Below are positions 17,049 to 30,624 of a stretch of DNA of 64,000 nt, piece by piece. The position numbers and the translations under genes are program-made. Source of the stretch: Mogibacterium sp. (lineage in GTDB: Bacteria; Bacillota; Clostridia; Peptostreptococcales; Anaerovoracaceae). The stretch covers positions 30,863 to 94,862 of the forward strand of contig JAFWGQ010000001.1 in the NCBI GenBank assembly GCA_017512365.1, in the 5' to 3' direction. Position 1 is the first letter of the stretch, and the number at the start of each line of letters is the position of its first letter. The notes under the pieces were generated by a model. The model ran no database searches. It was not told the origin of the DNA and saw only the letters and a list, made by a program, of their open reading frames with translations.

Positions 17049-17624
17049 ATGAAGAAAGCGATTACTCTGATAATTACCGTACTGATGATATCTGCTCTTG
17101 CGCCGGGGATGAGCGCCTGCAAAAAAACGCCGGAAACCGGAGACAAGGGCAGCCCTGAACCTGCAGCGGCAGATACGGAAAAGATCGTGACCTCCATCAC
17201 GGACATCGATACGGAAGACATGCAGGATCTTCCTCTCGAGATCGAATCGGTCACGCTCCTCGAAGGCGGTTCTGTCAGGATCGTCCCGACGGGAGACCTC
17301 AAAAAGAATGAGATCAAGGATGACAAGACCGACGCGATCTATCCGTTCGATGAATTCGGCAAGGTCAAAGACATATATCTCGTCAGATTCGGCAACGGCG
17401 GCTACAGGACGGTCATCGCCCTGATGGAAGACGGAACTCTGTCGGCGCTGAGCGCCAAAGAGCTCATCGAGGACCATATCGCGGTCGTCATGCCTAATGT
17501 ATCGGGAAGGGACAATTATGTGTCGGTAGAAGAAATAAAGGACGAGGACGAAGAAAGCTTCAGGGTCATCGGCAAGACGGATGACGGAGAGGAGATCGAA
17601 CTCGACTTCAGCCTCAACTTCTGA
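17049..17624 (+). CDS. Hypothetical lipoprotein
   Basis: Signal peptide with lipobox APGMSAC. ATG 17049 follows GAGGGA, and an alternative start lies at 17016. Confidence 0.6.
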   Translation: MKKAITLIITVLMISALAPGMSACKKTPETGDKGSPEPAAADTEKIVTSITDIDTEDMQDLPLEIESVTLLEGGSVRIVPTGDLKKNEIKDDKTDAIYPFDEFGKVKDIYLVRFGNGGYRTVIALMEDGTLSALSAKELIEDHIAVVMPNVSGRDNYVSVEEIKDEDEESFRVIGKTDDGEEIELDFSLNF

Positions 17625-17643
17625 CAGAAAGGACCATACAGCA

Positions 17644-19239
17644 ATGGATGCAACTCAGACAATTAATTCGGCTGTGGCCGAATGGTTCGAAGGCAATTTC
17701 AAGGAATCGGCAAAGCTGACGACAAAGACTTCGCGTCTGCAGGACGGAAGGCTCAGTTATTCCTTTTCCGTCGTCAACGATTCCGGCTTCGATTTCGATG
17801 ACTTTTCATTCAGGATCAAGGTCATCGACAAGTCGAACAACGAAGAGATAGGAACGGCGACTATCAAGGCCGGAGAGTGGAAGCGCGGCGAAAAAAAGAC
17901 CTTCAAGTCGAAGCTCGCGATCCCGCCTGATGTCAAGAGCCTGTCGTTCGTAATGTACTCGAATACCCTGAAGTACACGATCAGTGAAGAGGACAGGAAC
18001 AATATCGACTCGGTGTTCGACGGCATGGACGACGCCATGAGAGATATAGGCGAAGCCTTCGGAGGACTGACAGGCAGCGGGGGCGTTTTCGGAGAACTCT
18101 TCGGCACCGGCGGCATGCCTGAGACGGGACGCACCACGACGAAGACCACTACTACAAGATCCGCGGACGGGACGACCAGGACCACTACGACGACGACCAC
18201 AAGCAGAGGCAGCTCCGGAACGGTGAACGCGGGCAGTACCCGCACGGTCCCGAATTCCTCGCCGGCAAGACAGTCGGGCGGCGTTTCAAGCTATACGCAG
18301 CGCAAGATACAGAAGAAGCTGGACAAGATGAGACTCGGCAAGTCCGGATGGACCATCGTGGCGCTTGGGTTCGGCCTGCTGTTCCTGCTGGCTGCCGTGG
18401 GAGCCACGGAAGCGCCGGTTGCAGCCGCATACGGCGTCGCAGGCCTCATAGGTCTGGCGGCCGCGGCCGTCATCAAGCTCGTGAACAACAGCCGTGCAAA
18501 GAGGATCCGCACCTATGAAAGCAAGGTGAACTACAAGGGCAACACATATATCGATGATCTCTGCGCGGCGGTGGGCCGGCCTTACGAAAAGGTGGCCGAC
18601 GAACTGCAGCAGATGATAGTGGACGGCTTTTTCCCGGGAGCCTACGTGGACTTCAAAAACAGGCTGCTCGTCATGACGAAGGACGGCCAGCCGATGGAAT
18701 CGGTCGAGAAGTCAGTCGCGATGGGCAACAGGGCAAAACGCAAGTCCGGCAAGGATACCTCGCCTCAGACACTTGACGATCTGATCACCATGACCGATGA
18801 CGCCGAACTCAAGAGCAAGCTCAAGAAGCTCAGGACGGTCACGAAGAAGATCGACGCCAGAGTCGAAGAGGTTCCTGAACTCGGAAAGCAGGTCAAAGAG
18901 TTCAGGGAGAAGTATTACCCTGAGGTCGTACGCCTTACGGATGCATACAACGACAAGATCGCGGACCTCGCCAAGGGGACCGGCGACAAGCCTAAGGAAG
19001 AGGTCACGACCTCAGCCGACGGCGCGCCTGTGATCAACTCCAGTCCGAACTACCTCGAGGAGCAGGCGGCGGATATCAAGAAGCAGCTGATCTCACTGAT
19101 CGACTCGGTGACCGAGGCGTCGGACAACCTGCTCGAGAGACTGTACGAGGACGACATCATGGACATCACGACGGATATCCAGAGTCTTCAGACAACGCTC
19201 GCGAGCAAGGGCCTGCTCGATTCGGATTTCGATATTTAG
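17644..19239 (+). CDS. Membrane protein with an XpaC-like (5-bromo-4-chloroindolyl phosphate hydrolysis protein family) C-terminal region
   Basis: Architecture: N-terminal soluble domain, Thr-rich linker (TTTKTTTTRSADGTTRTTTTTTT), two TM helices, then a helical C-terminus. It lies directly upstream of a TelA/YaaN-like gene, matching the xpaC-yaaN pair of Bacillus subtilis. ATG 17644 was chosen. Confidence 0.55.
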   Translation: MDATQTINSAVAEWFEGNFKESAKLTTKTSRLQDGRLSYSFSVVNDSGFDFDDFSFRIKVIDKSNNEEIGTATIKAGEWKRGEKKTFKSKLAIPPDVKSLSFVMYSNTLKYTISEEDRNNIDSVFDGMDDAMRDIGEAFGGLTGSGGVFGELFGTGGMPETGRTTTKTTTTRSADGTTRTTTTTTTSRGSSGTVNAGSTRTVPNSSPARQSGGVSSYTQRKIQKKLDKMRLGKSGWTIVALGFGLLFLLAAVGATEAPVAAAYGVAGLIGLAAAAVIKLVNNSRAKRIRTYESKVNYKGNTYIDDLCAAVGRPYEKVADELQQMIVDGFFPGAYVDFKNRLLVMTKDGQPMESVEKSVAMGNRAKRKSGKDTSPQTLDDLITMTDDAELKSKLKKLRTVTKKIDARVEEVPELGKQVKEFREKYYPEVVRLTDAYNDKIADLAKGTGDKPKEEVTTSADGAPVINSSPNYLEEQAADIKKQLISLIDSVTEASDNLLERLYEDDIMDITTDIQSLQTTLASKGLLDSDFDI

Positions 19240-19273: not shown

Positions 19274-20530
19274 ATGGCAGAATTTGACCTTACACCTGAA
19301 GCGGTAAACGATGCAGTCAACGACGCAGCGGAAGAAACAGCAACTGCAATGGCTGCAGATGTACATGAAGTCGCAGCTCAGGCGGCTTCGCTCGATACGG
19401 TTGCTGCGCCTGTCATCGACTTCGGACAAGAAGAAGTCAGAAAGGACGAGGAGCCTCTTGCGCAGTTCACTGCCGATGAGCAGAGACAGATCAGGACCGT
19501 TGCCGACAAGATCGACATCACCGACAGCAACGCGGTGCTCAGCTACGGAGCCAGCGCGCAGCGCAAGGTGTCAGATTTCGCGGACGGAGCTCTCCAGAGC
19601 GTAAGAGCAAAGGACATGGGCGAGACAGGCCAGATCCTCACATCGCTGCTCGTCGAGCTCAAGACGAACGGCGAAGAAAAGAAGAGCCTGCTCGGCAAGC
19701 TGTTCGGAAGCGCCGAGAAGAATTTCGAAAAGCTCAAAGCCCAGTACAGCACGACAGAGGCCAACATCGACAGACTCGTCAAGCTTCTCGAGGATCATGA
19801 GCAGCAGCTCAGGAAGGATATCATCCAGCTCGATAAGCTCTATGACAAGAACAAGCTCTACTTCAAGGAGATCTCGATGTACATAGAGGCCGGCAAGCTC
19901 GCTATAGAGAAGGCCAGAAACGAGACTCTCCCGCAGCTTGAGGCAAAGGCAAAAGAGACTAACTCGGCAGAAGACATCCAGGCAGCTCAGGATTTCGCCG
20001 ACATGATCACGAGATTCGAGAAGAAGATCTACGACCTCGAACTTTCGAGGACGGTATGCCTCCAGTCCGCGCCTGAGATCAGGATGGTACAGAACTCGGA
20101 TACCATCATGTCCGAGAAGATCCGCAGCACGATACTGAACGTCATCCCGATGTGGAAGACCCAGATGGTGCTCGCTCTCAACAACTATCATACTCAGAAG
20201 GCCATCGAGGCCCAGCAGGCGGTCACGGACGCTACGAACGAGATGCTCACAAAGAACGCCGAAGCGCTCCACCAGAGCACGGTCGATACAGCGAGAGCAA
20301 GCGAGAGAGGCATCGTGGACATCGAGACGCTGCAGCACACCAACGAGCAGCTGATAAGCGCACTCAACGAGATCCAGCAGATCCAGGAGGACGGCAAGGT
20401 CGCAAGAGCGGCGGCAGAGCAGGAGCTCGCGAGGATCGAGCAGGAGCTCAAGGACAAGATGCTCGGCATCGCTGCAAGCGCCGGCAGGTCCGCAGAAGAG
20501 GTCGCGGCTGCACGCAGCACAGGCGAATAG
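19274..20530 (+). CDS. TelA/YaaN-family toxic anion resistance protein
   Basis: 418 aa and long-helical. Sequence blocks (NAVLSYGASAQRKVSDFAD, YIEAGKLAIEKA) resemble TelA-family proteins as I recall them. RBS AAGGAGG lies upstream. Confidence 0.75.
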   Translation: MAEFDLTPEAVNDAVNDAAEETATAMAADVHEVAAQAASLDTVAAPVIDFGQEEVRKDEEPLAQFTADEQRQIRTVADKIDITDSNAVLSYGASAQRKVSDFADGALQSVRAKDMGETGQILTSLLVELKTNGEEKKSLLGKLFGSAEKNFEKLKAQYSTTEANIDRLVKLLEDHEQQLRKDIIQLDKLYDKNKLYFKEISMYIEAGKLAIEKARNETLPQLEAKAKETNSAEDIQAAQDFADMITRFEKKIYDLELSRTVCLQSAPEIRMVQNSDTIMSEKIRSTILNVIPMWKTQMVLALNNYHTQKAIEAQQAVTDATNEMLTKNAEALHQSTVDTARASERGIVDIETLQHTNEQLISALNEIQQIQEDGKVARAAAEQELARIEQELKDKMLGIAASAGRSAEEVAAARSTGE

Positions 20531-20565
20531 CGTCTGAACGCAGCGCATAGCACATGAACAGATCT

Positions 20566-20610
20566 GGTGTAAAATCCTGATAACTATCAGCGGTTTTACA
20601 CCATTTTTTC
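20566..20610 (+). terminator. Rho-independent terminator
   Basis: GGTGTAAAA ... TTTTACACC stem followed by ATTTTTT. Confidence 0.75.
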
Positions 20611-20658
20611 AAAATCCTGTGTAATTCCGCTTTTCACAAACAGATCGTAAGGATTGAG

Positions 20659-21696
20659 ATGGACAACAAAGGCAGCCGCAAAAACAAAAGGTCGGAGACA
20701 GGGCGAAAGAGGGCGTTCGCCGTTTTTGCGCTGATCCTTGTATGCTGTCTGTGCCTTGCTGCGGTGAAATACCGCGAAGGCAGAGACATGGCTGCTGATG
20801 ATACAGGAAAGCAGCAGAATGCTTCTGTCGGAGCCGGACCTGCGGTATCCGGCGGAGAGATCGGCGATACGGCGTCGCCGGACGCGGAGCATCTGCCTGA
20901 ATACGACGGCCGCCGCTATGTGACCGTGAACGGAAGCGTGCCTGATTTTCCTGACGAGGTCATCGAAAAGGCATCGCTTGTAAAGAACGGCGACAGATAT
21001 AAGACAGAAGGCAGTCTGCCGGGCAGGGTGGATCCGTCCGGACTTACTCCGTACGAGTACTACGGCAGCCTGGACGAGCTGGGCAGGTGCACATGCGCGT
21101 ACGGATGCCTCGGGGAGGAGACCATGCCTGAGAAGGGGCAGGAGAGAGGTGATATATCGTCCATACATCCGTCAGGCTGGGCAAAAGCCCAGAACTGGGA
21201 GCGCTGCCACCTGATAGCGTGGGCTCTTTCGGCCGAGAACGACAATCCTGAGAACCTCATCACCGGCACTCATTACCTGAATTACGAAGGCATGAGGCCT
21301 TTTGAGGAGGAAGTCGGGCATTACATATGGAACACTGGAAACCATGTCCTTTACATGGTGAAGCCGTGGTTCAGCGGTGACGAGCTCGTGGCGAGGGGCG
21401 TACAGATGACCGCCCGCTCAGTCGAGGACAACGGTGCAGGCGTATCCTTCAACGTATATTGCTTCAATGTGACGCCGAACGCTTCTGTAGATTACATGAC
21501 GGGCATCGTCACGACAGAAGAGCAGGCGCAGCAGGAGCCGAGGCTCTATGTGGTCAATAAAAGGTCGAAGGTGTTCCACTATCCGAGCTGCGAAGGCGCG
21601 CAGTCCATATCGCCTCATAACAGGGAGGAAGTCACCGCGACCAGAGTCGAGCTAACTTCCCGGGGGTACACGCCGTGCGGTTACTGCGAACCATGA
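20659..21696 (+). CDS. Membrane-anchored DNA/RNA non-specific endonuclease (EndA/NucM-like) with a C-terminal Ada-like zinc domain
   Basis: N-terminal TM anchor. Nuclease core WERCHLIAWALSAENDNPENLITGT. The C-terminal FHYPSCEG...GYTPCGYCEP matches the Cys4 pattern of the Ada N-terminal Zn site. Confidence 0.7.
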   Translation: MDNKGSRKNKRSETGRKRAFAVFALILVCCLCLAAVKYREGRDMAADDTGKQQNASVGAGPAVSGGEIGDTASPDAEHLPEYDGRRYVTVNGSVPDFPDEVIEKASLVKNGDRYKTEGSLPGRVDPSGLTPYEYYGSLDELGRCTCAYGCLGEETMPEKGQERGDISSIHPSGWAKAQNWERCHLIAWALSAENDNPENLITGTHYLNYEGMRPFEEEVGHYIWNTGNHVLYMVKPWFSGDELVARGVQMTARSVEDNGAGVSFNVYCFNVTPNASVDYMTGIVTTEEQAQQEPRLYVVNKRSKVFHYPSCEGAQSISPHNREEVTATRVELTSRGYTPCGYCEP

Positions 21697-21810: not shown

Positions 21811-24498
21811 ATGACAGAGACACAGCGGCGGCGCTACATAATCGAAAACTTCGAAAGAGCCATGTCCGAAGGCTGGCTCAAGGTCTGGTATCAGCCGGTC
21901 GTCAGAGGCTCCAACGGCAGGGTGTGCAGCGAGGAGGCTCTCTCAAGATGGGCGGAGCCCGGAAAAGACATCATCTATCCTGACGCCTTCGTCCCGGTGC
22001 TCGAGGAGGCCGGCCTGACAGGAAAGCTCGATCTTTACGTGCTTGACCGTGTCCTGGAGGACTTCGGGCGGCGCAGTGAAGCGGGGCTTTATATCGTTCC
22101 GGTCTCCATCAATCTGTCCAGGAAGGATTTTGAAAACTACGATATGCCGGAAGAGATCCGCAGAAGGGTGGACGGAGCCGGCGTCGACAGGAAGAAGATC
22201 GCTCTGGAGATCACAGAGACCGCCATGGGAAGCGATTTCGATCAGATGAGCACGCAGGTAAAACGTCTGCGGGAGATGGGATTCAGAGTCTGCATGGACG
22301 ATTTCGGCAGCGGATATTCATCGCTCGACTTTCTGCAGAAGACGGATGTAGATGCTCTCAAACTCGACCTGAACTTCATGCGCGAGTTCGAGACCAATGA
22401 GAAGACGAGGCTCATAGTCACACAGCTGGTCAGGATGATATCCTCGCTCGGCATGGATACTGTTGCCGAGGGAGTAGAGACCGAAGAGCAGTTCGAATTC
22501 CTCAGAGAGATCGGATGCACCAAGATGCAGGGATTCTGGTTCTGCGAGGCCGTCCCTCTAGAGGAGATCATTGCCCGCTACAGGGAAGGGCGCCAGATAG
22601 GCTTCGAGAATCCGGACGAGACCGAGTATTATGAAACTCTCGGCAGGATAAGCCTCTTCGATCTGGATGATACGGCTTCGGACGAACAGGCTCCTGAAGA
22701 CAGTTCTGCACTCCGGAGGTACTTTGCTTCGCTTCCTGTAGCCGTGCTCGAGTATAACGGTGAGAAGATCCGCATAGTCCGCTGCAACAGGAGCTACAAG
22801 GAATTCGTAAAAGAGGCGTTCGGCATCACGGGAACAGAAAGAAGCGATGACCATGCTCCTCAGCTCCATGAAAAAGGCGCCGAGATATTCGAACTCTTCG
22901 AGCGCTGCAGAGGCCTCGGGAGAAGGCTGCTGTTCGAAGAGCAGGTAAGCGACAGGATGAATATCAACGGCTTCATAAGGCATTCCGCGGACAATGAGGT
23001 CACGGGCTATTCCGCGTTCACGCTCGCCATTCTGAGCAGCAAGGACTTCGACGAGAGCTCGGGAGTTACTTTCGCCCGCGCCGCACGGGCCCTTTCATCC
23101 GACTATATCAATCTGTACTATGTGAACGATCAGACGGGTGAGTTCACGGAGTACAATCCGGACGCCTTGCGCAGCAATCTCTCCGTGGAAAGACGCGGGC
23201 ATGACTTTTTCAACACCAGCAGAAAGGATGCCGAAAAGGCCATATATCCTGATGACCGCGCCAAGTTCCTGAGCGAGTTCAGAAAGGAATATATCCTGGA
23301 GGTCCTTGAGCAGCAGGGAACATTCACGCTCTCGTACCGTCTGATGACCGACGGCGAGCCGATCTATGTCAACATGAAGGCTGTCAGGGTGGACGGCGAA
23401 CACATAGTGATCGGCGTCAACGATGTGGACGCGTACATGCGCCATAAGGAGGCTCTCGAAAGAGCGGAGCAGGAGAGCATAACCTACGCCAGGATCACGG
23501 CTCTTGCCGGCAATTACCTGGCCATATACACGGTAGACCCTGTAAGCGAAGAATATATCGAATACAGCGCGACAAAGGAGATCGAGGACTTCGGGATCGC
23601 CAAGAAAGGAACGGACTTCTTCGGCGAGATGATCAGGAACGGCAGAGACGCGGTGTTTGGCGAAGATTTCGAGGGCTATCAGGTGATCTGCACGAAAGAG
23701 AACATCCTGCGCGATATCGAGCAGACGGGACTCTTCGAATTCAACTACCGGCTGATGATGGGGGGCGAGCCTGTCCATGTCTCGCTCAGGGCAGCAAGAG
23801 TCGAAGAAAAAGACGGGCCGCGCATCATAGTCGGCATCAGCAATATCCAGGAAAGGATGGCGCGAAGCCAGCAATACGAAACAGCCCTGAAAGAAGCGAG
23901 GGCTATGATAACCACCGACGGGCTTACCGGGGTGAAGAACAAGGGCGCCTACATGAATGCCGAAGCCGAGCTGAACGAGCAGATCAGAGCCGGAGCGGAT
24001 CCGGAGTTCGCTGTAGTCGTGGCCGACCTGAACGGACTCAAGGATATAAACGACCAGCACGGGCACCAGACCGGAGACAATTTCCTCAAGGCGGGATGCA
24101 GGGCCATATGCGACATTTTCGATCACAGTCCGGTGTTCAGGGTAGGCGGCGACGAATTCGCGATCATCGCGAGGGGCCGCGACTACGAGCATATCGATGA
24201 GCTGATGGAAAAGATGGCCGCTCACAATGAGTGGTGCATAGAGGCGAGAAAATCGGAAGGAGAGGGATACTCCGCGGCAAAGCGTATGACTATAGCTGCC
24301 GGAGCCCACGACCGCGACAGCAGGGTCGAAAGGGACTACACGGATGCCAGCGCCGGTGCGATATATGACTTTGACCCTGAGGATGTGGTCATAGCTGCCG
24401 GCATGGCGCGCTTCGAAGGGGACCCTGATGTCTCTGCGGTGTTCGACCGGGCGGATCTGGCGATGTTCGAGAACAAGAAGGAACTCAAGAGCAGATGA
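21811..24498 (+). CDS. c-di-GMP turnover protein: N-terminal EAL phosphodiesterase, two PAS-like sensor repeats, C-terminal GGDEF cyclase
   Basis: EAL motifs: EEALSRW, EITE, DDFGSGYSSL, KLD, EGVETEEQ, QGFWF. GGDEF motifs: DLNGLKDINDQHGHQTGDN and RVGGDEFAII. Confidence 0.9.
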   Translation: MTETQRRRYIIENFERAMSEGWLKVWYQPVVRGSNGRVCSEEALSRWAEPGKDIIYPDAFVPVLEEAGLTGKLDLYVLDRVLEDFGRRSEAGLYIVPVSINLSRKDFENYDMPEEIRRRVDGAGVDRKKIALEITETAMGSDFDQMSTQVKRLREMGFRVCMDDFGSGYSSLDFLQKTDVDALKLDLNFMREFETNEKTRLIVTQLVRMISSLGMDTVAEGVETEEQFEFLREIGCTKMQGFWFCEAVPLEEIIARYREGRQIGFENPDETEYYETLGRISLFDLDDTASDEQAPEDSSALRRYFASLPVAVLEYNGEKIRIVRCNRSYKEFVKEAFGITGTERSDDHAPQLHEKGAEIFELFERCRGLGRRLLFEEQVSDRMNINGFIRHSADNEVTGYSAFTLAILSSKDFDESSGVTFARAARALSSDYINLYYVNDQTGEFTEYNPDALRSNLSVERRGHDFFNTSRKDAEKAIYPDDRAKFLSEFRKEYILEVLEQQGTFTLSYRLMTDGEPIYVNMKAVRVDGEHIVIGVNDVDAYMRHKEALERAEQESITYARITALAGNYLAIYTVDPVSEEYIEYSATKEIEDFGIAKKGTDFFGEMIRNGRDAVFGEDFEGYQVICTKENILRDIEQTGLFEFNYRLMMGGEPVHVSLRAARVEEKDGPRIIVGISNIQERMARSQQYETALKEARAMITTDGLTGVKNKGAYMNAEAELNEQIRAGADPEFAVVVADLNGLKDINDQHGHQTGDNFLKAGCRAICDIFDHSPVFRVGGDEFAIIARGRDYEHIDELMEKMAAHNEWCIEARKSEGEGYSAAKRMTIAAGAHDRDSRVERDYTDASAGAIYDFDPEDVVIAAGMARFEGDPDVSAVFDRADLAMFENKKELKSR

Positions 24499-24561
24499 AT
24501 CAGGCGGAAGAATTGACCTGTGGCTGACTGCGGGCATCGGCCTGAGGCCTGATACCCCGGG

Positions 24562-24584
24562 GCGACGCATGCGTCAGTTTTTTC
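24562..24584 (+). terminator. Rho-independent terminator after the EAL-GGDEF gene
   Basis: Palindrome GACGCATGCGTC followed by AGTTTTTT. Confidence 0.7.
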
Positions 24585-24627
24585 AAGGAAACATGTTTTA
24601 AGTTCAGTTTTTACGCTGATTGTAGTA

Positions 24628-25893
24628 ATGTTAAGTTCTATGGGAGACAATATCAGAGAAAATGAAGAATATGTAAGCGTCTTTGACAGAATGCTGGACA
24701 TGGACAAAAGAAGGGCCTTTATAGAAAGGAAAAGGTCCTCATACAGCGTTTCGGAAGACGAGGCGGCTCAGCTCGAGGCCTACATATTGTCCGACAGGTG
24801 CACTGATGAGATACAGAGGCTCAGGGAAGGAGACTTCTTCTTCAAACCGCCCGGACTCACGATGCTCCGCAAGAAGAATTCGACAAGGAAGCGCAGGATC
24901 TACAGATTTCGCGACAACGAGAGCATGCTGCTCAAGCTCATGGCTTTCGTGATGCATGATTTCGATTATCTGTTCTCGGATTCGCTGTATTCCTTCCGTC
25001 TGGGAAAGCACATATCCGGCATATTCAATACCGTAAACAAAAATGGCTACAATAAGGACTGCTGGGTCCTCAAGACAGACATACACAGCTACGGCGACAA
25101 CGTGGATCCGGAAATACTCAGCGTACAGATGAGAGAACTGCTCGCGGAGAAGGACCCTTCCCTGTTCGCATTTCTGGAAAAGCTGGTCTGCCGGGGCGAG
25201 TACTGGTTCCGCGGCAATCTGGTGCAGGGCCCGACCGGAGCTCTGAGCGGATGCGCTCTCACCAATTTCTTCGAGAACGTATATCTGCTGGACGTCGATG
25301 ACGTGGTCAGACAGAACAGCGTATATTACTGCAGATTCGCCGATGACATCGCGGTGTTCACCGAATCAAAGGCGCAGGCTGAGGTGGTCAGGGAATTCCT
25401 CAGAAAGACCTTCGAGGAAAGAGGTCTTGAGTTCAATGAAGCAAAGACCGATATATGCGCGCCGCGCGAGGGCTTCGATCTGCTCGGGTTCAGGCTCCAG
25501 GACGGCGAGTACGATATCGCCGAGAACTCCCTTGAGAAGATAGAGTGGAAACTGAACCACTATGCGGAAAAGCTGGTGAGAAAGGAGCGCAGGGGCGAAC
25601 TCACAAGAGAGGAAGCCATGCAGCGCATGATCGACAGGGTCGACAGGTACTTCTTCGGAGTCGTCAGAGAGGAAAGAGAGCTGAACTGGGTAGACTGGGC
25701 TTTCAGAATCCTTACAAGGACAGACAGTCTCAAGAGGATAGACGCATGGTCGCAGGAGTGCATAAGGTTCGTCGGCAGCGGCGGCAAGCGCACAGGCGCG
25801 AAATACCGTGTCCGTTACAAGGACATGCGGCGCATGGGTTACCGCACGCTTGTGCACGCGTATTACCACGGATTCGAAAGAAGAACTGAATAA
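24628..25893 (+). CDS. Stand-alone reverse transcriptase (RNA-directed DNA polymerase), class undetermined
   Basis: Seven RT blocks are readable:
- Blocks 1/2: RKRRIYRFRDNESMLLKLMAFVM.
- Block 2a: SLYSFRLGKH.
- Block 3: VLKTDIHSYGDNV.
- Block 4: GALSGCALTNFFENVYLLDVDD.
- Block 5: YYCRFADDIAVF.
- Block 6: GLEFNEAKTDI.
- Block 7: FDLLGFRL.
These are followed by a helical tail of about 110 aa. The start is uncertain (24628 or 24640), and neither has a clear Shine-Dalgarno. Confidence 0.85.
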   Translation: MLSSMGDNIRENEEYVSVFDRMLDMDKRRAFIERKRSSYSVSEDEAAQLEAYILSDRCTDEIQRLREGDFFFKPPGLTMLRKKNSTRKRRIYRFRDNESMLLKLMAFVMHDFDYLFSDSLYSFRLGKHISGIFNTVNKNGYNKDCWVLKTDIHSYGDNVDPEILSVQMRELLAEKDPSLFAFLEKLVCRGEYWFRGNLVQGPTGALSGCALTNFFENVYLLDVDDVVRQNSVYYCRFADDIAVFTESKAQAEVVREFLRKTFEERGLEFNEAKTDICAPREGFDLLGFRLQDGEYDIAENSLEKIEWKLNHYAEKLVRKERRGELTREEAMQRMIDRVDRYFFGVVREERELNWVDWAFRILTRTDSLKRIDAWSQECIRFVGSGGKRTGAKYRVRYKDMRRMGYRTLVHAYYHGFERRTE

Positions 25894-25899
25894 GATATA

Positions 25900-26051
25900 C
25901 CGGCGTGAGCCGGGATATGGGCGGGTGCGCTTGAAAAAGCGCGTCTGCAAGAGACGGTTGAGGCGGCCATGAAAAGGCTATGCAGACGGCCGCCGCCGGG
26001 ACTGTTTTGACAGCCGAGGCCTTGAATGGATTCCCGCCCATATCCGGACCC
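25900..26051 (+). repeat. Tandem structured repeat, copy 1 (candidate RT-associated ncRNA unit)
   Basis: 152 nt starting 7 nt after the RT stop codon. Predicted helices:
- CCGGC-GUGA-GCCGG hairpin.
- 13-bp closing stem GGAUAUGGGCGGG / CCCGCCCAUAUCC.
- GCGCUU-GAAA-AAGCGC hairpin.
- GUCUGCA / UGCAGAC helix.
- GGCGGCC / GGCCGCC complementarity. Confidence 0.8.
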
Positions 26052-26084
26052 ACGAAGGAACAGAAGGAAAGAACAAAAAAAGAT

Positions 26085-26236
26085 CCGGCGTGAGCCGGGA
26101 TATGGGCGGGTGCGCTTGAAAAAGCGCGTCTGCATGAGACAGTTGAGGCGGCCTTGAAAAGGCTATGCAGACGGCCGCCGCCGGGACTGTTTTGACGGCC
26201 GCAGCCTTGAATGGACCCCCGCCCATATCCGGGCCC
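26085..26236 (+). repeat. Tandem structured repeat, copy 2
   Basis: Offset by exactly 185 nt from copy 1. My manual alignment gives 9 substitutions and no indels over 152 nt. The copies are separated by the purine-rich spacer ACGAAGGAACAGAAGGAAAGAACAAAAAAAGAT. Copy 2 ends 39 nt before the ABC exporter start codon. Confidence 0.8.
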
Positions 26237-26274
26237 GCATCGCAGTGGGTCGAATAAGCGTACAGGGAAAGCAG

Positions 26275-28458
26275 ATGAAGGTACCAGTAGTCATACAGAC
26301 ACATCCGGGAGAGAATTCCATCGCGGCGATCGCCACGATACTCTCTTACTATGGCAAGGTAGTCCCGCTTTCCGAAATGAGGAAGTACAATATCACCTCG
26401 AGAGGCGGTTCCACTCCGGAACAGATGAAGGACATGGCATCGCGCTATGACCTCGAGACGGAGATAGTGGAAGCGGATATGGAACAGCTCGCCGGCATGA
26501 CTATGCCTGTGGTCGCGAAGTGGAAGCACAAGTACTGGGTGATAGTTAAGAAGATAGGAAGAGGCGTGGTATATCTGTCGGATCCGGCCAAAGGCGAGTA
26601 TGAGATGTCGATCGACGGATTCAGCAGCAAATTCGACGGAGCCGTACTCGTGATGAAGCCGGCCGAAGGCTTCAAAAGGGGAGGCAAAAGGCCGTCCCTT
26701 TACGGCCTCATCATGAAGCGTCTGGACGGCGTTCAGCGGCAGATGGTCATGCTGGGCATCCTCAACGCCATGGCTGTGGGTCTCAGTCTGCTGATGGTCA
26801 GGTCCACGCGTATGATGCTCGATGTGGCGGGCAATGAGAAAGGAAAAGAGGACTGGGTGCAGTCGCTGCTGTCAGGAGGCTTTGACGACCGCTCTACGTA
26901 CAGGTTCCTCGTGGTCTCGATGTGCGTCATACTGGCTGCCATGACCGCGGTCAACGTGATCAAGACTCTTCTTATATACAGGACAGCCTATTCAGTAGCG
27001 GCGCGCTCGGGAGCAGGACTGTTCAGGAAGATCCTGATGCAGCCCATGGTATTCTTCGAGCAGTACAGATCAGGCGAACTGATACAGCGAATGGAGGACA
27101 ACTCGAAGCTCGATCTGTCTCTGGTGAGGACCATAGTTCCGCGCCTGCTCGATTTCGTGATGACCATCATATATTTCGTGCTCATGCTCAGCTACAACTG
27201 GAAAGTGGCGCTTATCTGCATTCTGGTTGAGATCGTTTACATGGTCGTATCGCTTCGCATGAAGAACCGCATCACGATGCAGGCCAGGAGCAACGCCGTC
27301 AGTACCGGCATGATGAACACATCGATACTGAACGGGCTGGACACCATAGATACCATCAAGTCCGGAGGTCTCGAGAGGATGTTCTTTTCGGACTGGAACA
27401 GATCCCAGATCGAATTCGATGAGGCGCGTGAGGGCGGCATAAGCATCACTGCCATCACGGGAGCGATCGACAGCATGCATTCGCTCTTCTCGCAGGCCGC
27501 ACTGCTCTTCGCCGGAGCCTACTTCATGATACAGGGACAGTTTACCTTCGGTATAATGGCAGCTCTGCAGACTGTGCTCGGGAACTTCAGGAACAGCTTC
27601 TCGAACTGCATCTCCATGACCAACAATCTGCAGAAGACGAGAACCGAGATAGAACGCATAGAAGACATAAGAGAAAGAGACAGCCTGCCTGAAAAACATC
27701 TGGCCGCTGATTCGGAGCCGGATAAGCTCAGGGGGCGTCTTGATGTGTCGCATCTGTGCTACAGATACCAGGAGGGCGAAGCTCCTGCCCTTGATGATGT
27801 GAGCTTCAGCGCCAAACCGGGCGAGCTTATCGCCGTGGTCGGATCCTCCGGATGCGGCAAGAGCACTCTCCTGAAGTGCCTGCTCTCACTTTACGAACCG
27901 GAGAGCGGCAATATATGGTACGACGGACACACAAGAGACGAGATCCCGGATGTCGTGTTCCGTTCATCGGTCACGGCAGTCGACCAGGAGTGCGTCGTAT
28001 TCGAGGACAGCATAGCGAACAACCTGACGATGTGGGACCCGACGGTCGAGGAGTACGAGATGATACTCGCCGCCCGTGACGCCCACATACACGAGAGGAT
28101 CATCAGGGACAGAGATGGGTATTACGCCGGGATGTACGAGAACGGCAGGAACTTTTCCGGCGGAGAGCTGCAGAGGCTTGAGCTCGCCAGGGCTCTGTCC
28201 ACGGAATCCACCATACTGCTGCTCGATGAATTCACATCGGCGCTCGACGCTGTTACCGAGGAAGCTGTATTCAAGTCCATAAGACTGAAGGCTACCACAT
28301 GCATAATAGTCGCTCACAGGCTGTCGACGGTGGCCTCGTGCGACCACATACTCGTAATGGACAAGGGCAGGATCGTGCAGAGGGGAACGCACGAAGAACT
28401 GTATAACACCGAAGGCATTTACAGAGATCTTCTGGAAGTGCCTGGGGAGAAGATCTGA
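26275..28458 (+). CDS. ABC exporter (permease + ATPase) with an N-terminal C39-peptidase-like domain lacking the catalytic Cys
   Basis: The N-terminal VVIQTHPGENSIAAIATILSYYG ... HKYWVIV ... LSDPAKG resembles bacteriocin-exporter C39 domains, but no Cys occurs in roughly the first 215 residues. Six-TM core, Walker A GSSGCGKST, signature FSGGELQRL, Walker B LLLDEF. ATG 26275 was preferred over 26245. Confidence 0.85.
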   Translation: MKVPVVIQTHPGENSIAAIATILSYYGKVVPLSEMRKYNITSRGGSTPEQMKDMASRYDLETEIVEADMEQLAGMTMPVVAKWKHKYWVIVKKIGRGVVYLSDPAKGEYEMSIDGFSSKFDGAVLVMKPAEGFKRGGKRPSLYGLIMKRLDGVQRQMVMLGILNAMAVGLSLLMVRSTRMMLDVAGNEKGKEDWVQSLLSGGFDDRSTYRFLVVSMCVILAAMTAVNVIKTLLIYRTAYSVAARSGAGLFRKILMQPMVFFEQYRSGELIQRMEDNSKLDLSLVRTIVPRLLDFVMTIIYFVLMLSYNWKVALICILVEIVYMVVSLRMKNRITMQARSNAVSTGMMNTSILNGLDTIDTIKSGGLERMFFSDWNRSQIEFDEAREGGISITAITGAIDSMHSLFSQAALLFAGAYFMIQGQFTFGIMAALQTVLGNFRNSFSNCISMTNNLQKTRTEIERIEDIRERDSLPEKHLAADSEPDKLRGRLDVSHLCYRYQEGEAPALDDVSFSAKPGELIAVVGSSGCGKSTLLKCLLSLYEPESGNIWYDGHTRDEIPDVVFRSSVTAVDQECVVFEDSIANNLTMWDPTVEEYEMILAARDAHIHERIIRDRDGYYAGMYENGRNFSGGELQRLELARALSTESTILLLDEFTSALDAVTEEAVFKSIRLKATTCIIVAHRLSTVASCDHILVMDKGRIVQRGTHEELYNTEGIYRDLLEVPGEKI

Positions 28459-30624
28459 ATGGGCATATATACCGAGGCGCTCAAAAACCGCGAAAGAAAC
28501 GACCTTGAGCTCGAGCGCAACGCCGAGCTGAGGATGATGAACCGTCTGGACAGAGATCCGAAATTCAATGATGCAGACGGAGCGTTCTTTGCGTTGAATC
28601 ATATCCTCGGCAAATTCGGCCTGTCGGCGAACGAGGTGCACGGCTACTCCGGCACTCAGGAGATGCTGGACCTCGCCCTCGATCCGCTGGCCATAATATA
28701 TGATATCGTTGACCTCAGCGATACGGAATGGACAAAGCGCACCGAGTACATACTGGGATTCATGGAGGACGGCAGGGCCGTCGTCCTGAGCCCTGCGGTC
28801 AGAGGATACACATACAGATGCCTGACTGACGGTTCGCATGGATGGGTGAGGAAAGACACCCCTCTGCAGCAGTTCGCATACGCGATACAGAGACCTCTCG
28901 ACAGAAGGGTCAGGAACCTGGTCACTCTCGCGATATATACACTGCATCTCGTTTCGGCAAGAGACATAATCGCGATAGGCGGAGCGACACTGGCGATCTC
29001 TCTGCTCGGACTCATCACGCCGAAGATGAACCAGTACGTGCTCCGCGAGATCGTGCCCATGGGAACCGACGGCTACACTCTTCTGTTCAGGGCTTTCGGT
29101 CTCTTCCTCTCTGCCGGCATGGTCAAAGGCGCCATCCAGGCCGTCAAGAGCGTGAGTCTGGGCAAGATGCGCATAAGGATATCCTCGGAGGTGCAGTCCG
29201 CGGTCATGACAAAGGTACTGACGCTGCCGCAGTCTTTCTTTACTCAGGTATCCACGGGCAAGCTCTCAAAACAGATATCGAACGCCAGATTCCTGAGCGA
29301 ACAGATAATAAGCTTCGTTCTCGGAGCTTCTCTGACAGCGGTGTTCTCGCTTGTATACATACCTCAGATGGCCGGGTTTTCAAGGGTCCTTCTGATACCC
29401 GCGGTCGTCATACTGATCATCAGGAGCGTCTACACACTGATGGCCGGATACCTCTTTGCCGACAACGAAAGGAGGAGGCAGGAGGCCGAGATGGACGAGA
29501 GGGCCTTCCTCTTCTCCACGTTCAAGGGCATACAGAGGATAAAGGAGAGCGGAGCCGAAAAGAGGATATTCTCGAGATGGACATCGAAGTACAGCGCCGT
29601 GCTCGACTGCGACCTGAACATGCCTGTAGCGCTTTCGCTCGAGGACGTAGTGCTCAGCTTCCTGAGCTCGCTCGGTACTGTGATACTCCTCTCGCTCATC
29701 ATTCCTGCCGGAATAGACAAGGCGGACTATATCGCGTTCACGAGCGCGTTCGGCCTGATCTCGGCGGCAGTCACGGAACTGATGGACGCGCAGAGAAAGC
29801 TCTTCCTCATGAGACCCATGATGGAGCAGCTCAGAGGACTGTTCGAGTCCGAACCGGAGGATGCCCCTGAAAAGAGCGTAGTCAGAAACATCAGAGGCAG
29901 CATAAAGGTAGAGAATGTCAGCTTCGCGTACGACGAAGGCAGGTTCGGATGCCTCAACGGAGTCTCGCTGGATATCGCCGCGGGAGAGAAGGTCGCGATC
30001 GTAGGCGAGAGCGGCTGCGGAAAGAGCACTCTTTTAAAGATCATACTCGGAGCGCTCAAGCCTGACGAGGGAGCCGTGCTCATAGACGGCATGCCTCTCG
30101 AATCTCTGAATCTGAGATCCTACAGAAGGCACATCGGAGCTGTTTTCCAGTTCAGCAAGGTGATGCCGGGAACGATATATTCCAATATCGCTTTCTGTCC
30201 GCATCCGGTCAGCCTCGAAGAGGCGAAGGCCGCGGCCGAAAAGGCCGACATAGCTGAGACCATAGAAAGGCTGCCTCTCGGCTACGAGACAGAGATATCC
30301 GACTCGAACACCGGAGGCTTCTCCGGCGGTCAGAGACAGAGGCTTCTGCTTGCCAGGGCCTTCGCTTCGAAGCCGGACATCATGATACTCGACGAGGCGA
30401 CGTCCGCACTCGACAACATTTCCCAGAACAAGGTGCTCGATTCGGTATATAAGGAAAACTGCACTGTAGTGATGGTCGCGCACAGGCTGTCGACGGTCAG
30501 AGACTGCGACAGGATAGTCCTGATAAAGGAAGGCCGCATAGCCGAACAGGGCACCTACGACGACCTCATGAAGCTTCGCGGAGAATTCTATGAGCTCATG
30601 CGCAGGCAGTCCGGAACGCACTGA
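28459..30624 (+). CDS. ABC exporter (permease + ATPase), partner subunit with a non-peptidase N-terminal domain
   Basis: TGAATG junction with the upstream gene. Walker A GESGCGKST, signature FSGGQRQRL, Walker B IMILDEATSALD, H-loop VAHRLST. The N-terminal domain of about 150 aa has no C39 motifs. Confidence 0.85.
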   Translation: MGIYTEALKNRERNDLELERNAELRMMNRLDRDPKFNDADGAFFALNHILGKFGLSANEVHGYSGTQEMLDLALDPLAIIYDIVDLSDTEWTKRTEYILGFMEDGRAVVLSPAVRGYTYRCLTDGSHGWVRKDTPLQQFAYAIQRPLDRRVRNLVTLAIYTLHLVSARDIIAIGGATLAISLLGLITPKMNQYVLREIVPMGTDGYTLLFRAFGLFLSAGMVKGAIQAVKSVSLGKMRIRISSEVQSAVMTKVLTLPQSFFTQVSTGKLSKQISNARFLSEQIISFVLGASLTAVFSLVYIPQMAGFSRVLLIPAVVILIIRSVYTLMAGYLFADNERRRQEAEMDERAFLFSTFKGIQRIKESGAEKRIFSRWTSKYSAVLDCDLNMPVALSLEDVVLSFLSSLGTVILLSLIIPAGIDKADYIAFTSAFGLISAAVTELMDAQRKLFLMRPMMEQLRGLFESEPEDAPEKSVVRNIRGSIKVENVSFAYDEGRFGCLNGVSLDIAAGEKVAIVGESGCGKSTLLKIILGALKPDEGAVLIDGMPLESLNLRSYRRHIGAVFQFSKVMPGTIYSNIAFCPHPVSLEEAKAAAEKADIAETIERLPLGYETEISDSNTGGFSGGQRQRLLLARAFASKPDIMILDEATSALDNISQNKVLDSVYKENCTVVMVAHRLSTVRDCDRIVLIKEGRIAEQGTYDDLMKLRGEFYELMRRQSGTH

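Follow-up and report, generated by a model that had tools for sequence, protein, structure and literature searches.

A complete reverse transcriptase (RT) gene lies at positions 24628..25893 (+ strand) of the window analysed here, i.e. the whole 64-kb stretch of Mogibacterium sp. DNA, and it raises two questions: to which kind of RT does it belong, and does it work alone? The original prediction held that the enzyme fits no class and that it stands alone, with no partner elements. Here, we give a different answer to both. The RT matches the profile of the UG26 group over its full length, and directly 3' of it lie two copies of a predicted structured RNA, followed by two ABC exporter genes.

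Placement of the reverse transcriptase

The 421-aa open reading frame carries all RT motifs (LRKKNSTRKRR, SLYSFR, LKTDIHSYGD, GALSGCALTNFFEN, YCRFADDIAVF, FNEAKT and LLGFRL), and Pfam RVT_1 covers residues 82-290 (E 1e-16). The catalytic FADD occupies residues 237-240, and D151, D239 and D240 are invariant in a 31-sequence alignment of the RT family. The AlphaFold2 model of the protein is confident (pLDDT 88.5). Much of the original description of the gene stands: the complete frame and its motifs are present as described, motif 7 reads LLGFRL with no retron VTG, and motif 4 (GALSGCALTN) has SG at the place of the DGR-type SQ. RVT_1 is the sole Pfam domain, there is no GIIM maturase or endonuclease domain, and the claimed lack of flanking intron RNA agrees with Rfam, which has no family in 23500-27500 at E<=1, nor anywhere in the 64-kb window at gathering score. 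The intact upstream gene, encoding an EAL-GGDEF protein, ends at 24498 and leaves a gap of 129 nt (about 130 had been given). By eye, no AGGAGG-like Shine-Dalgarno sequence precedes either candidate ATG, at 24628 or 24640, again as predicted. The dimensions of the two ends were less exact. The N-terminal extension exists, but counted from the start of RVT_1 it spans about 81 aa and not 85; the part past motif 7 is indeed helical in the AlphaFold model, but it is about 130 aa long and not 110. Within this part, the motif GYRTLVHAYYHG (residues 404-415) is kept across the RT family, whose members share a conserved helix at the C-terminus and, 6-10 residues before the end, a Tyr that is nearly invariant.

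The match to PADLOC RT_UG26 (E 5e-100, 333 bits, residues 17-415 on profile positions 2-395 of 398) shows the RT, at the level of profiles, to be a member of UG26, one of the Class 2 UG/Abi groups. The second-best PADLOC RT profile reaches only 98 bits; the closest HMM relatives after UG26 are UG4, UG17 (86 bits) and UG27, and Drt9 scores 40 bits. The original view that the RT lies outside the classic classes was sound in so far as it is neither a retron or DGR RT nor one of group II introns or CRISPR systems; the NCBIfam scores are far under their cut-offs: 97.8 bits for the group II RT model TIGR04416 (cut-off 300), 43.5 for retron_St85_RT (235) and 43.4 for Drt2 (390). Nor did we find a well-characterised class with its usual partners nearby, UG26 itself being uncharacterised. 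Canonical UG26 members score 441-550 bits on RT_UG26, against 333 for the window RT, which by this measure is in a divergent UG26 subclade. The family comprises 421 clusters (50% identity) at E<=1e-30; some other UG26 members have a fused ZacB-like domain, with marginal PLD-like Pfam scores, and one family member (P0084) is a radical SAM-RT fusion.

UG26 was named as a Class 2 UG/Abi group of uncharacterised function, with no RNA listed, with a Vsr/YcjD-like endonuclease adjoining 9 of 35 members and with an inconclusive defence association (Mestre et al. 2022, PMC9226505). The window RT resembles this description in its length of about 400 aa, its full-length profile match and the absence of a fused known domain, the criterion for Class 2. 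It differs in that its subclade adds a conserved putative ncRNA and an ABC exporter pair to the published description (PMC9226505). No Vsr/YcjD-like gene was found in the window or among the called genes of the fetched RT loci.

The best PDB fold for the RT model is the GsI-IIC RT (6ar1, TM 0.73), with G2L4 at 0.64; these group II intron RTs are the best matches over the whole length, ahead of DRT9 (0.57-0.60) and DRT2 (0.46). The profile search of PDB returned Cas6-RT-Cas1 first, and its strongest matches after that are group II intron RTs. Both fold and profile thus put the enzyme nearer group II intron RTs than DRT9 or DRT2, and analogy with DRT mechanisms is therefore not guaranteed.

A predicted structured RNA beside the RT

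A 152-nt tandem direct repeat, overlooked in the original prediction, begins 7 nt past the RT stop. Its copies A (25904..26054, +) and B (26089..26239, +) are 94% identical, with 11 differences, and score 163.6 and 162 bits, respectively, with the covariance model that we built; copy A has a fold z of -4.1 and its helices show covariation. There are no further copies elsewhere in the 64-kb window. In copy A, the predicted fold is closed by P1 (25909-25925 / 26033-26047), made of long terminal inverted repeats and followed by an invariant UG at the P1/P2 junction. Then come the hairpin P2 (25927-25942), the helix P3 (25943-25949 / 25981-25987), the strands of S2 (about 25950-25979 and 25988-26008), a conserved UUUUGA (26005-26010), the hypervariable hairpin P4 (26011-26021; 26196-26206 in copy B) and a conserved UUGAAUGG (26022-26029). 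There is no long msd hairpin. Since P3 and S2 cannot coexist as plain nested helices, the fold would be a pseudoknot or a switch. Three of the 11 differences between the copies are in P4, and two in the 3-nt junction past UUGAAUGG.

The covariance model finds the RNA in 24 loci (the window, L001-L007, L009-L014 and L086-L095), that is, in every locus of the clade that has sequence beside the RT; L008 was left out of the count because it ends inside the RT gene. In the PLD-fused branch, two loci have a diverged homolog at the syntenic position. The RNA lies 3' of the RT in most loci and 5' of it in L086, L088 and L089, and it is opposite in strand to the RT in L090, L091 and L095. The motifs in its sequence are shared even between lineages whose RTs are only 36% identical. 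The pairing is strongly supported: 91% of the cells in the structure are paired, against 36-49% when partners are slid, and 28 of 41 pairs vary on both sides, which none of 500 shuffles matches. Cognate helix arms also outdo arms swapped among 11 lineages (p<5e-5 for P1, p<5e-5 for S2 and p=1.5e-4 for P3). These patterns point to a new RNA family, absent from Rfam, as a candidate partner of the RT.

Hairpin and T-run sites found by a terminator scan on the minus strand near the window copies raised the question of which strand is read. This was settled by the asymmetry of G-U pairs, 112 in RT sense and 12 when reversed, which shows the predicted RNA to be read in the RT-sense orientation. A scan of the + strand around the window copies found no sigma-70 promoter or terminator above chance. 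No frame on any strand is stop-free across the lineages of the RNA, which also speaks against an endless ORF of the DRT2 kind spanning the whole element. The element is non-coding, as no reading frame is kept across lineages (a result also apparent by eye). Three other readings of the repeat were tried and rejected. It is not a scattered repeat, being confined to this locus within 64 kb. It is not a DGR template/variable pair, as the 11 differences are not adenine-specific and neither copy is in a coding region. Bacteriocin precursor genes usually sit where the repeat lies, and for this reason a peptide-coding repeat was considered; the AUGCAGACGGC.. frame does not persist across the conserved UUUUGA, and in L090 its start reads ACG.

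P4 holds 28% of the differences among near-identical RNA copies in 7% of the length. If any segment serves as template or determines specificity, P4 is the best candidate, as it is flanked on both sides by invariant single-stranded motifs and comes directly after the stable S2 on its 3' side. The DRT10 A-B-A' rule, here UUGA-N11-UUGA, fits the window, L001, L002, L005 and L086; in L004, L088 and L091 the flanks are complementary and not identical. The sequences leave the rule ambiguous for the UG26 RNA, and we treat it as a hypothesis only. No complement of either P4 sequence occurs within the window.

The exporter pair and its linkage to the RT

Two ABC exporter genes follow the RNA copies. 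Subunit 1 (26275..28458, +, 727 aa; Pfam Peptidase_C39, ABC_membrane and ABC_tran) consists of an N-terminal C39-like domain (residues about 3-131), a transmembrane domain and a nucleotide-binding domain. Subunit 2 (28459..30624, +, 721 aa) has no peptidase domain by Pfam, and its N-terminal 170 aa or so have no sequence match in PDB and no known relative. The best NCBIfam matches are TIGR03796 for subunit 1 (582 bits, under the cut-off of 853) and TIGR03797 for subunit 2 (494 bits, under 709). PADLOC matches to the exporters cover the generic ATPase core only, and the ATPase motifs are intact in both nucleotide-binding domains. The peptidase side looks very different. When the C39-like domain is aligned to LahT (6mpz, E 3e-17), the catalytic Cys has become Asn and the His Tyr. 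Asn stands at the Cys position in all 11 RT-linked ABC1 homologs, and the His is replaced by Tyr, Ser or Asn. Such loss of catalytic residues shows, as judged from the alignment, that the domain is dead as a protease.

The pair recalls NHLP bacteriocin exporters (TIGR03796/TIGR03797), which also have two subunits and a C39 domain on subunit 1 only, and subunit 1 has the C39 fold of PCAT transporters (PCAT1, LahT, ComA). Unlike in either, the scores are under the curated cut-offs, the C39 Cys and His are lost and there is no precursor-peptide gene. The non-catalytic C39-like domains of HlyB-type exporters resemble that of subunit 1.

Comparison of loci shows a linkage between RT and exporter pair that holds across several gene orders. 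Counted from the side of the RT loci, two ABC exporters adjoin the RT in 16 of 18 informative loci, in four arrangements: tandem-downstream, tandem-upstream, convergent and divergent. Among the exporter-linked loci the RTs are 36-88% identical, the ABC2 orthologs beside them 37-88%, the host families differ and the outer flanks are unrelated. In L086, L088, L089 and L091 no more than 20 nt separate the RT stop from the start of ABC1, or the two overlap, which suggests translational coupling. L005 and L090 have RT and RNA with no adjacent ABC pair in the sequence available. A word-indexed search with the C39-like domain returned three proteins, and our literature search found no reported link between an RT and a C39-ABC exporter.

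The hosts are related anaerobic gut or rumen Firmicutes, plus one Eggerthellaceae MAG, and there is a cultured carrier, Lachnospiraceae bacterium JC7 (GCA_000513555.1, contig ALYD01000013.1). The flanks of the window are housekeeping genes, with no defence island, and the RT has no matches in the plasmid, phage and IMG/VR collections; both the missing defence-island context and the absence from mobile-element collections count against the module proposed below.

Possible roles of the module

We lean, with modest confidence, towards a module in which a UG26 RT and its ncRNA make templated cDNA and are coupled to a heterodimeric ABC exporter, most likely for phage defence or another conflict function. 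The parts of this proposal are not equally firm. That RT and RNA are partners is very probable, and their functional coupling to the ABC pair is probable. A defence role is plausible, and we assign it tentatively, with slightly more doubt than trust. To our knowledge, each of the Class 2 UG/Abi RTs examined to date (DRT2, DRT9, DRT10) has turned out to synthesise DNA in an unexpected way, directed by its own ncRNA. By analogy with these systems, the RNA would fold with its 5' and 3' ends paired in P1 and bind the RT, serving both as the scaffold and as a template that is copied repeatedly into cDNA. In DRT9 and DRT10, a Ser or Tyr that follows a conserved helix at the C-terminus acts as the primer; likewise, synthesis in UG26 may be protein-primed from the conserved C-terminal Tyr, Y413, our candidate priming residue. 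The cDNA, or an RT-DNA product, would then act on or through the ABC exporter as the output arm, the part that SLATT plays in DRT10, and the ZacB-like (PLD-like) domain may be the output arm in other UG26 branches. Defence systems typically join a fixed core to interchangeable effectors, and the ZacB-like fusion and the Vsr-like neighbour of other UG26 members fit this pattern. We know of no full ABC exporter that acts as a defence effector.

One of the closest known systems is DRT10 (UG17; PMC12632851; 10.64898/2026.06.29.735271). Its RT too falls in Class 2 of the UG RTs, and the UG17 HMM is one of those that match the window RT next best. Its multi-part operon of RT, structured ncRNA and membrane protein resembles the UG26 locus, as do the conserved helix at the C-terminal end of the RT, with a hydroxyl residue close to the terminus, the closing of the RNA by pairing of its ends (SL1 in DRT10) and the poorly conserved segment just 3' of a stable stem. 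Yet the RT families differ (the window RT reaches 333 bits with UG26 and 86 with UG17), the UG26 RNA has another sequence and fold and is mostly downstream of the RT, and the membrane partner is an ATP-driven ABC exporter pair instead of SLATT. ncRNA templates are used by Class 2 UG RTs (PMC12632851), and DRT9 (UG28) and DRT2 (UG2) are, like UG26, compact Class 2 RTs with an adjacent ncRNA, on whose template they depend; templating in UG26 is putative. The window RT is, however, under the HMM cut-offs of these families, the RNAs are unrelated, neither system has an exporter partner, and the UG26 RNA has no conserved stop-free frame for a Neo-like gene.

Other explanations must be weighed against this proposal. 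The module might serve the export of a peptide (RiPP- or bacteriocin-like), the ABC pair being a specialised NHLP-type exporter and the RT-RNA regulating, diversifying or generating the cargo. The best matches of both subunits are NHLP bacteriocin exporters, the UG26 locus of L090 adjoins radical SAM/SPASM, LanC-like and DUF4135 genes, a radical SAM/SPASM gene and a small ORF sit beside the UG26 RT in L096 and L097, and the fusion P0084 and the missing defence-island context of the window point in the same direction. This is at odds with both ABC scores being under the NHLP cut-offs and with the lack of a conserved precursor-peptide gene; moreover, a C39 domain without its Cys and His is unable to cleave off a leader peptide, no open reading frame is kept in the RNA, and radical SAM neighbours occur in few loci only and could be coincidental. 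We regard peptide export as unlikely. One might also speculate that the ABC genes are beside the RT by inherited synteny only and that the unit is RT plus RNA, as in DRT2 and DRT9. The relatedness of the hosts would allow this, RT and ABC2 identities drop together as shared descent would give, and L005 does without the pair. But synteny would hardly give four gene orders and orientations between unrelated outer genes, a distinct exporter subfamily with an invariant Cys-to-Asn change, or the tight RT-ABC1 junctions that suggest translational coupling, and we find the idea improbable.

The three remaining alternatives concern the RNA and the RT themselves. In a retron-like element, P1 would correspond to the a1/a2 repeats, and the invariant G where P1 meets P2 would offer its 2'-OH as primer for the cDNA, yielding an msDNA-like product. 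The long inverted repeats followed by UG suit such an element, as does the position of the variable P4 and 3-nt junction immediately 5' to the 3' arm, the point at which a retron RT begins copying. The RT, with its 43.5 bits against 235, its motif 7 without VTG and UG4, UG17 and UG27 as next relatives, does not, and the RNA has neither a long msd-type hairpin nor a match to an Rfam retron msr; this makes the retron reading quite improbable. It is very improbable that the repeat has no connection with the RT and acts as a leader that regulates in cis or as a terminator, or is an intergenic repeat of the REP kind. The window copies do lie in the 5' region of the ABC operon, a U-run follows the last copy in L001 and L002, and an RBS and ATG come directly after the RNA in L096 and L097. 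Yet the RNA follows the RT even where the ABC pair is upstream, convergent or divergent (L004, L087, L009, L011, L014, L092, L094), the genes after it are unrelated (purE, SpoU, ParB), it can lie on the opposite strand (L090, L091, L095), the window repeat is restricted to its locus within 64 kb, and its motifs persist across RT lineages only 36% identical. The resemblance of the RT fold to group II intron RTs and the absence of fused domains might finally suggest an orphan enzyme that stands alone in a class of its own, as first thought, or the decayed remnant of a group II intron. The full-length UG26 match and the conserved partner RNA and genes contradict an orphan, and a decayed fragment is hard to reconcile with intact, conserved catalytic residues and the lack of intron RNA, GIIM and endonuclease domains (and with 97.8 bits against 300). 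We give this view hardly any credence.

Returning to the coupled RT-RNA-exporter module, a variant of its output is conceivable in which the RT-ncRNA product (DNA, RT-linked DNA, or a product encoded by new DNA) is bound by the non-catalytic C39-like domain and exported across the membrane by the ABC pair. Such a module would be an RT-fed system for secretion or signalling. We think this improbable. Jointly with such export, and with equally little likelihood, P4 and the tandem RNA copies would supply product variants.

UG26 is one of the remaining unexplained Class 2 UG/Abi groups, and a candidate RNA partner can now be proposed for it. The group appears to swap output modules, among them the ABC pair, the ZacB-like (PLD-like) fusion and the Vsr-like neighbour, and no RT is known to have a partner of the same kind as this ATP-driven ABC exporter pair, whose peptidase domain is dead. 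The cultured carrier, Lachnospiraceae bacterium JC7, makes the module directly testable. If the link to the exporter is functional, it would be the first connection of reverse transcription with membrane transport.

A divergent UG26 reverse transcriptase

The ORF at 24628-25893 (+) encodes a complete reverse transcriptase (RT), as the original prediction had observed: 421 aa, Pfam RVT_1 on residues 82-290, motifs legible in translation (including YCRFADDIAVF and LLGFRL) and catalytic residues D151, D239 and D240 that are invariant across a 31-sequence family alignment. The predicted lack of a fused domain and of flanking intron RNA was also borne out, as Pfam gave no domain besides RVT_1 and Rfam gave no match, to group II introns or anything else, at the locus or in the window. 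The close, intact upstream gene is an EAL-GGDEF gene ending at 24498, 129 nt before the RT. On the other hand, the C-terminal tail measures about 130 aa rather than about 110.

The claim that the protein fits no classic class holds only in part. Group II, retron and Drt2-5 RTs are excluded, the protein scoring far under every cut-off of these NCBIfam models, but a class does exist: the PADLOC RT_UG26 profile spans its full length (E 5e-100; runner-up model 98 bits). Profile placement, proposed at the time as a check, thus ends in a named but uncharacterised group, of which this RT is a new member. UG26 was described as a small Class 2 UG/Abi group of 35 members, occasionally with a Vsr/YcjD-like neighbour; its defence prediction was inconclusive, and an ncRNA was not described (Mestre et al. 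2022, PMC9226505). We found no other mention of UG26 in this sense in the searchable literature. An exhaustive profile search put the family at 421 clusters (E<=1e-30). On the UG26 model the window RT reaches 333 bits where canonical members reach 441-550, which indicates a divergent UG26 subclade. The RT's AlphaFold model is confident (pLDDT 88.5), and structural comparison, the other proposed check, ranked the group II intron RT GsI-IIC highest (TM 0.73), above G2L4 (0.64), DRT9 (0.57-0.60) and DRT2 (0.46).

A structured RNA beside the RT gene

Calling the RT stand-alone is contradicted by a conserved partner RNA and partner exporter genes. Seven bases past its stop codon starts a 152-nt direct repeat (25900-26051 and 26085-26236, copies 94% identical), with no further copies elsewhere in the window. 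Each of the five related genome loci has one to four copies of the element directly 3' of the RT, and a covariance model based on 11 copies detects it in every further locus of the RT clade with sequence beside the RT (L008, whose sequence ends inside the RT gene, is uninformative). Its place varies: downstream with RTs of 55% identity or more and with the RT of L087, upstream in L086, L088 and L089, whose RT gene directly adjoins the next gene, and on the strand opposite the RT in L090, L091 and L095. Its far-side neighbours are unrelated (purE, SpoU methylase, ParB). Copies per locus range from 1 to about 3.5, with two in the window, L002, L006 and L093, and three plus a partial one in L001. 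This truncated fourth copy (L001:6803-6866, P1 5' arm to S2 5' strand) suggests that copy number shifts by unequal recombination; it leads directly into the ribosome-binding site of the first exporter gene. Neither Rfam 15 nor the searchable literature describes this RNA family.

In a 19-sequence alignment 91% of cells are paired, against 36-49% with slid partners; 28 of the 41 pairs change on both sides, and none of 500 shuffles reaches any observed measure. Without recourse to an alignment, helix arms of 11 lineages were also paired with their cognates and with arms from other lineages; the cognate and swapped values were -22.4 and -10.4 kcal/mol for P1 and -23.0 and -13.7 for S2 (both p<5e-5), with p=1.5e-4 for P3. 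G-U pairs number 112 in the RT sense and 12 in reverse, which identifies the RT-sense orientation as the transcribed strand. In the fold, P1 is a long stem that closes the element, P2 a hairpin, P3 a 7-bp helix and S2 a helix in three parts; because S2 crosses P3, they make up either a pseudoknot or a switch between two states. P4, a small hairpin flanked by the invariant single-stranded motifs UUUUGA and UUGAAUG, is hypervariable: among near-identical copies, some of them from a single locus, it has 0.47 differences per site versus 0.12 overall. No conserved reading frame is kept in the element. At the 5' edge of each copy (25900-25913, 26085-26098) a CCGGC-GUGA-GCCGG hairpin resembles, on the minus strand, a terminator with its T-run, most strongly at the second copy owing to an A-run spacer (26075-26082); this is probably incidental, though it could stop antisense transcription.

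An exporter pair and interchangeable partners

The RNA is followed by two ABC exporter genes, ABC1 (26275-28458) and ABC2 (28459-30624), nearest to the NHLP bacteriocin exporter pair, yet scoring under its cut-offs. Flanking sequence suffices in 18 loci, and 16 of them have such a pair, including L092 (isolate Lachnospiraceae bacterium JC7) and L094; it also adjoins RTs of other host families that are just 36-41% identical. The pair stands in tandem with the RT, either behind or ahead of it, or is convergent or divergent to it, four arrangements in all, and the genes flanking the module differ from locus to locus. Relative to the LahT protease domain, ABC1 has lost the catalytic Cys (to Asn, as in 11/11 RT-linked sequences) and His (to Tyr), while Walker A, signature, Walker B-Glu and H-loop motifs are intact in both nucleotide-binding domains. 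Together with the linkage, these sequence features mark the pair as a dedicated exporter, probably active, whose C39-like domain is non-catalytic. The N-terminal ~170 residues of ABC2 (28459-28980) have no Pfam domain and no PDB sequence relative; this stretch may be a domain, peculiar to the exporter subfamily, that binds a partner. The RT-exporter partnership is likewise undescribed in the searchable literature.

Other branches have other partners. Several family members are ~730-aa fusions. PADLOC ZacB recognises their N-terminal half (E 1e-23 to 1e-39), for which Pfam PLD-like scores are only marginal (21-29 bits). Two such loci carry, after a divergent radical SAM/SPASM gene and at one syntenic site, a diverged RNA homolog (L096:4267-4414 and L097:4279-4429, both minus strand) that the covariance model scores at just 7.7 and 12.3 bits; compared by eye, both have P1, P2, P3 and S2, which covary between the two, and upstream of the RNA is the conserved promoter TTGAC-N17-TATGCT. 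Immediately behind the RNA a small ORF begins with its RBS and ATG; RtcB and Fic genes come next, and in L097 a C39 ABC exporter lies a few genes beyond. P0084 (1274 aa) is a radical SAM-RT fusion and P0167 (723 aa) an LRR_5-RT fusion, which could be genuine or gene-calling artefacts. In an Eggerthellaceae MAG (L090:1725-5521), radical SAM/SPASM, LanC-like and DUF4135 genes form a RiPP-type cluster beside the RT, with no ABC pair in the sequence examined and the RNA on the strand opposite the RT. The RT-RNA pair thus looks like a constant core with variable partners.

Among surrounding genes, a TelA-family gene and a secreted-type DNA/RNA non-specific endonuclease (Endonuclea_NS_2; 19274-21696) lie 3-5 kb upstream of the RT, preceded by a 552-aa ORF (17581-19236) with no Pfam match at E<=1e-5. 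Another nuclease (Endonuclease_1 with dockerin) immediately precedes the module in L086; nucleases near the module in these two loci are probably a coincidence. A small ORF and a PIN-domain gene, likely a toxin-antitoxin pair, lie directly upstream of RNA and RT in L095 (4998-5653).

What the module may do

We are confident that RT and RNA are partners, and their functional coupling to the exporter is probable. An orphan RT or intron fragment is scarcely credible given the UG26 match, exporter linkage, RNA occurrence and covariation, and a cis-regulatory or REP-like element hardly less so, as the RNA varies in position and strand. Retron-like priming would agree with the terminal inverted repeats of the RNA, but is at odds with the RT itself and seems improbable. 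Only slightly less doubtful is that RT and exporter are neighbours by synteny alone, an idea weakened by three findings: the gene order takes four forms, the flanks are unrelated and the exporter subfamily is a dedicated one. A peptide-export (RiPP-like) role fits the exporter ancestry and the radical SAM neighbours; with neither precursor gene nor active peptidase, it is unlikely, if the least so of these alternatives.

An RT-ncRNA-exporter module making templated cDNA in defence is, on balance, the reading we favour. Studied Class 2 UG RTs repeatedly copy part of their own ncRNA (PMC12632851). In DRT9 and DRT10, synthesis is primed from a Ser or Tyr that sits at the very C-terminus, past a conserved helix, and in DRT10 SL1 pairs the RNA ends. 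In UG26 RTs the conserved C-terminal motif GYRxLVHA(Y/F)YHG is modelled confidently as a helix, followed by a short tail. By analogy, the RT-ncRNA complex would make templated cDNA, possibly primed from Y413, with P4 and its flanks as candidate template or specificity segment and the ABC pair as putative output arm. The window is not a defence island, and phage, plasmid and viral-contig collections gave no match to the RT. Still, the family's relatives are defence systems and the partners are interchangeable, and for these reasons defence, though a tentative assignment, is the most likely role of the module.
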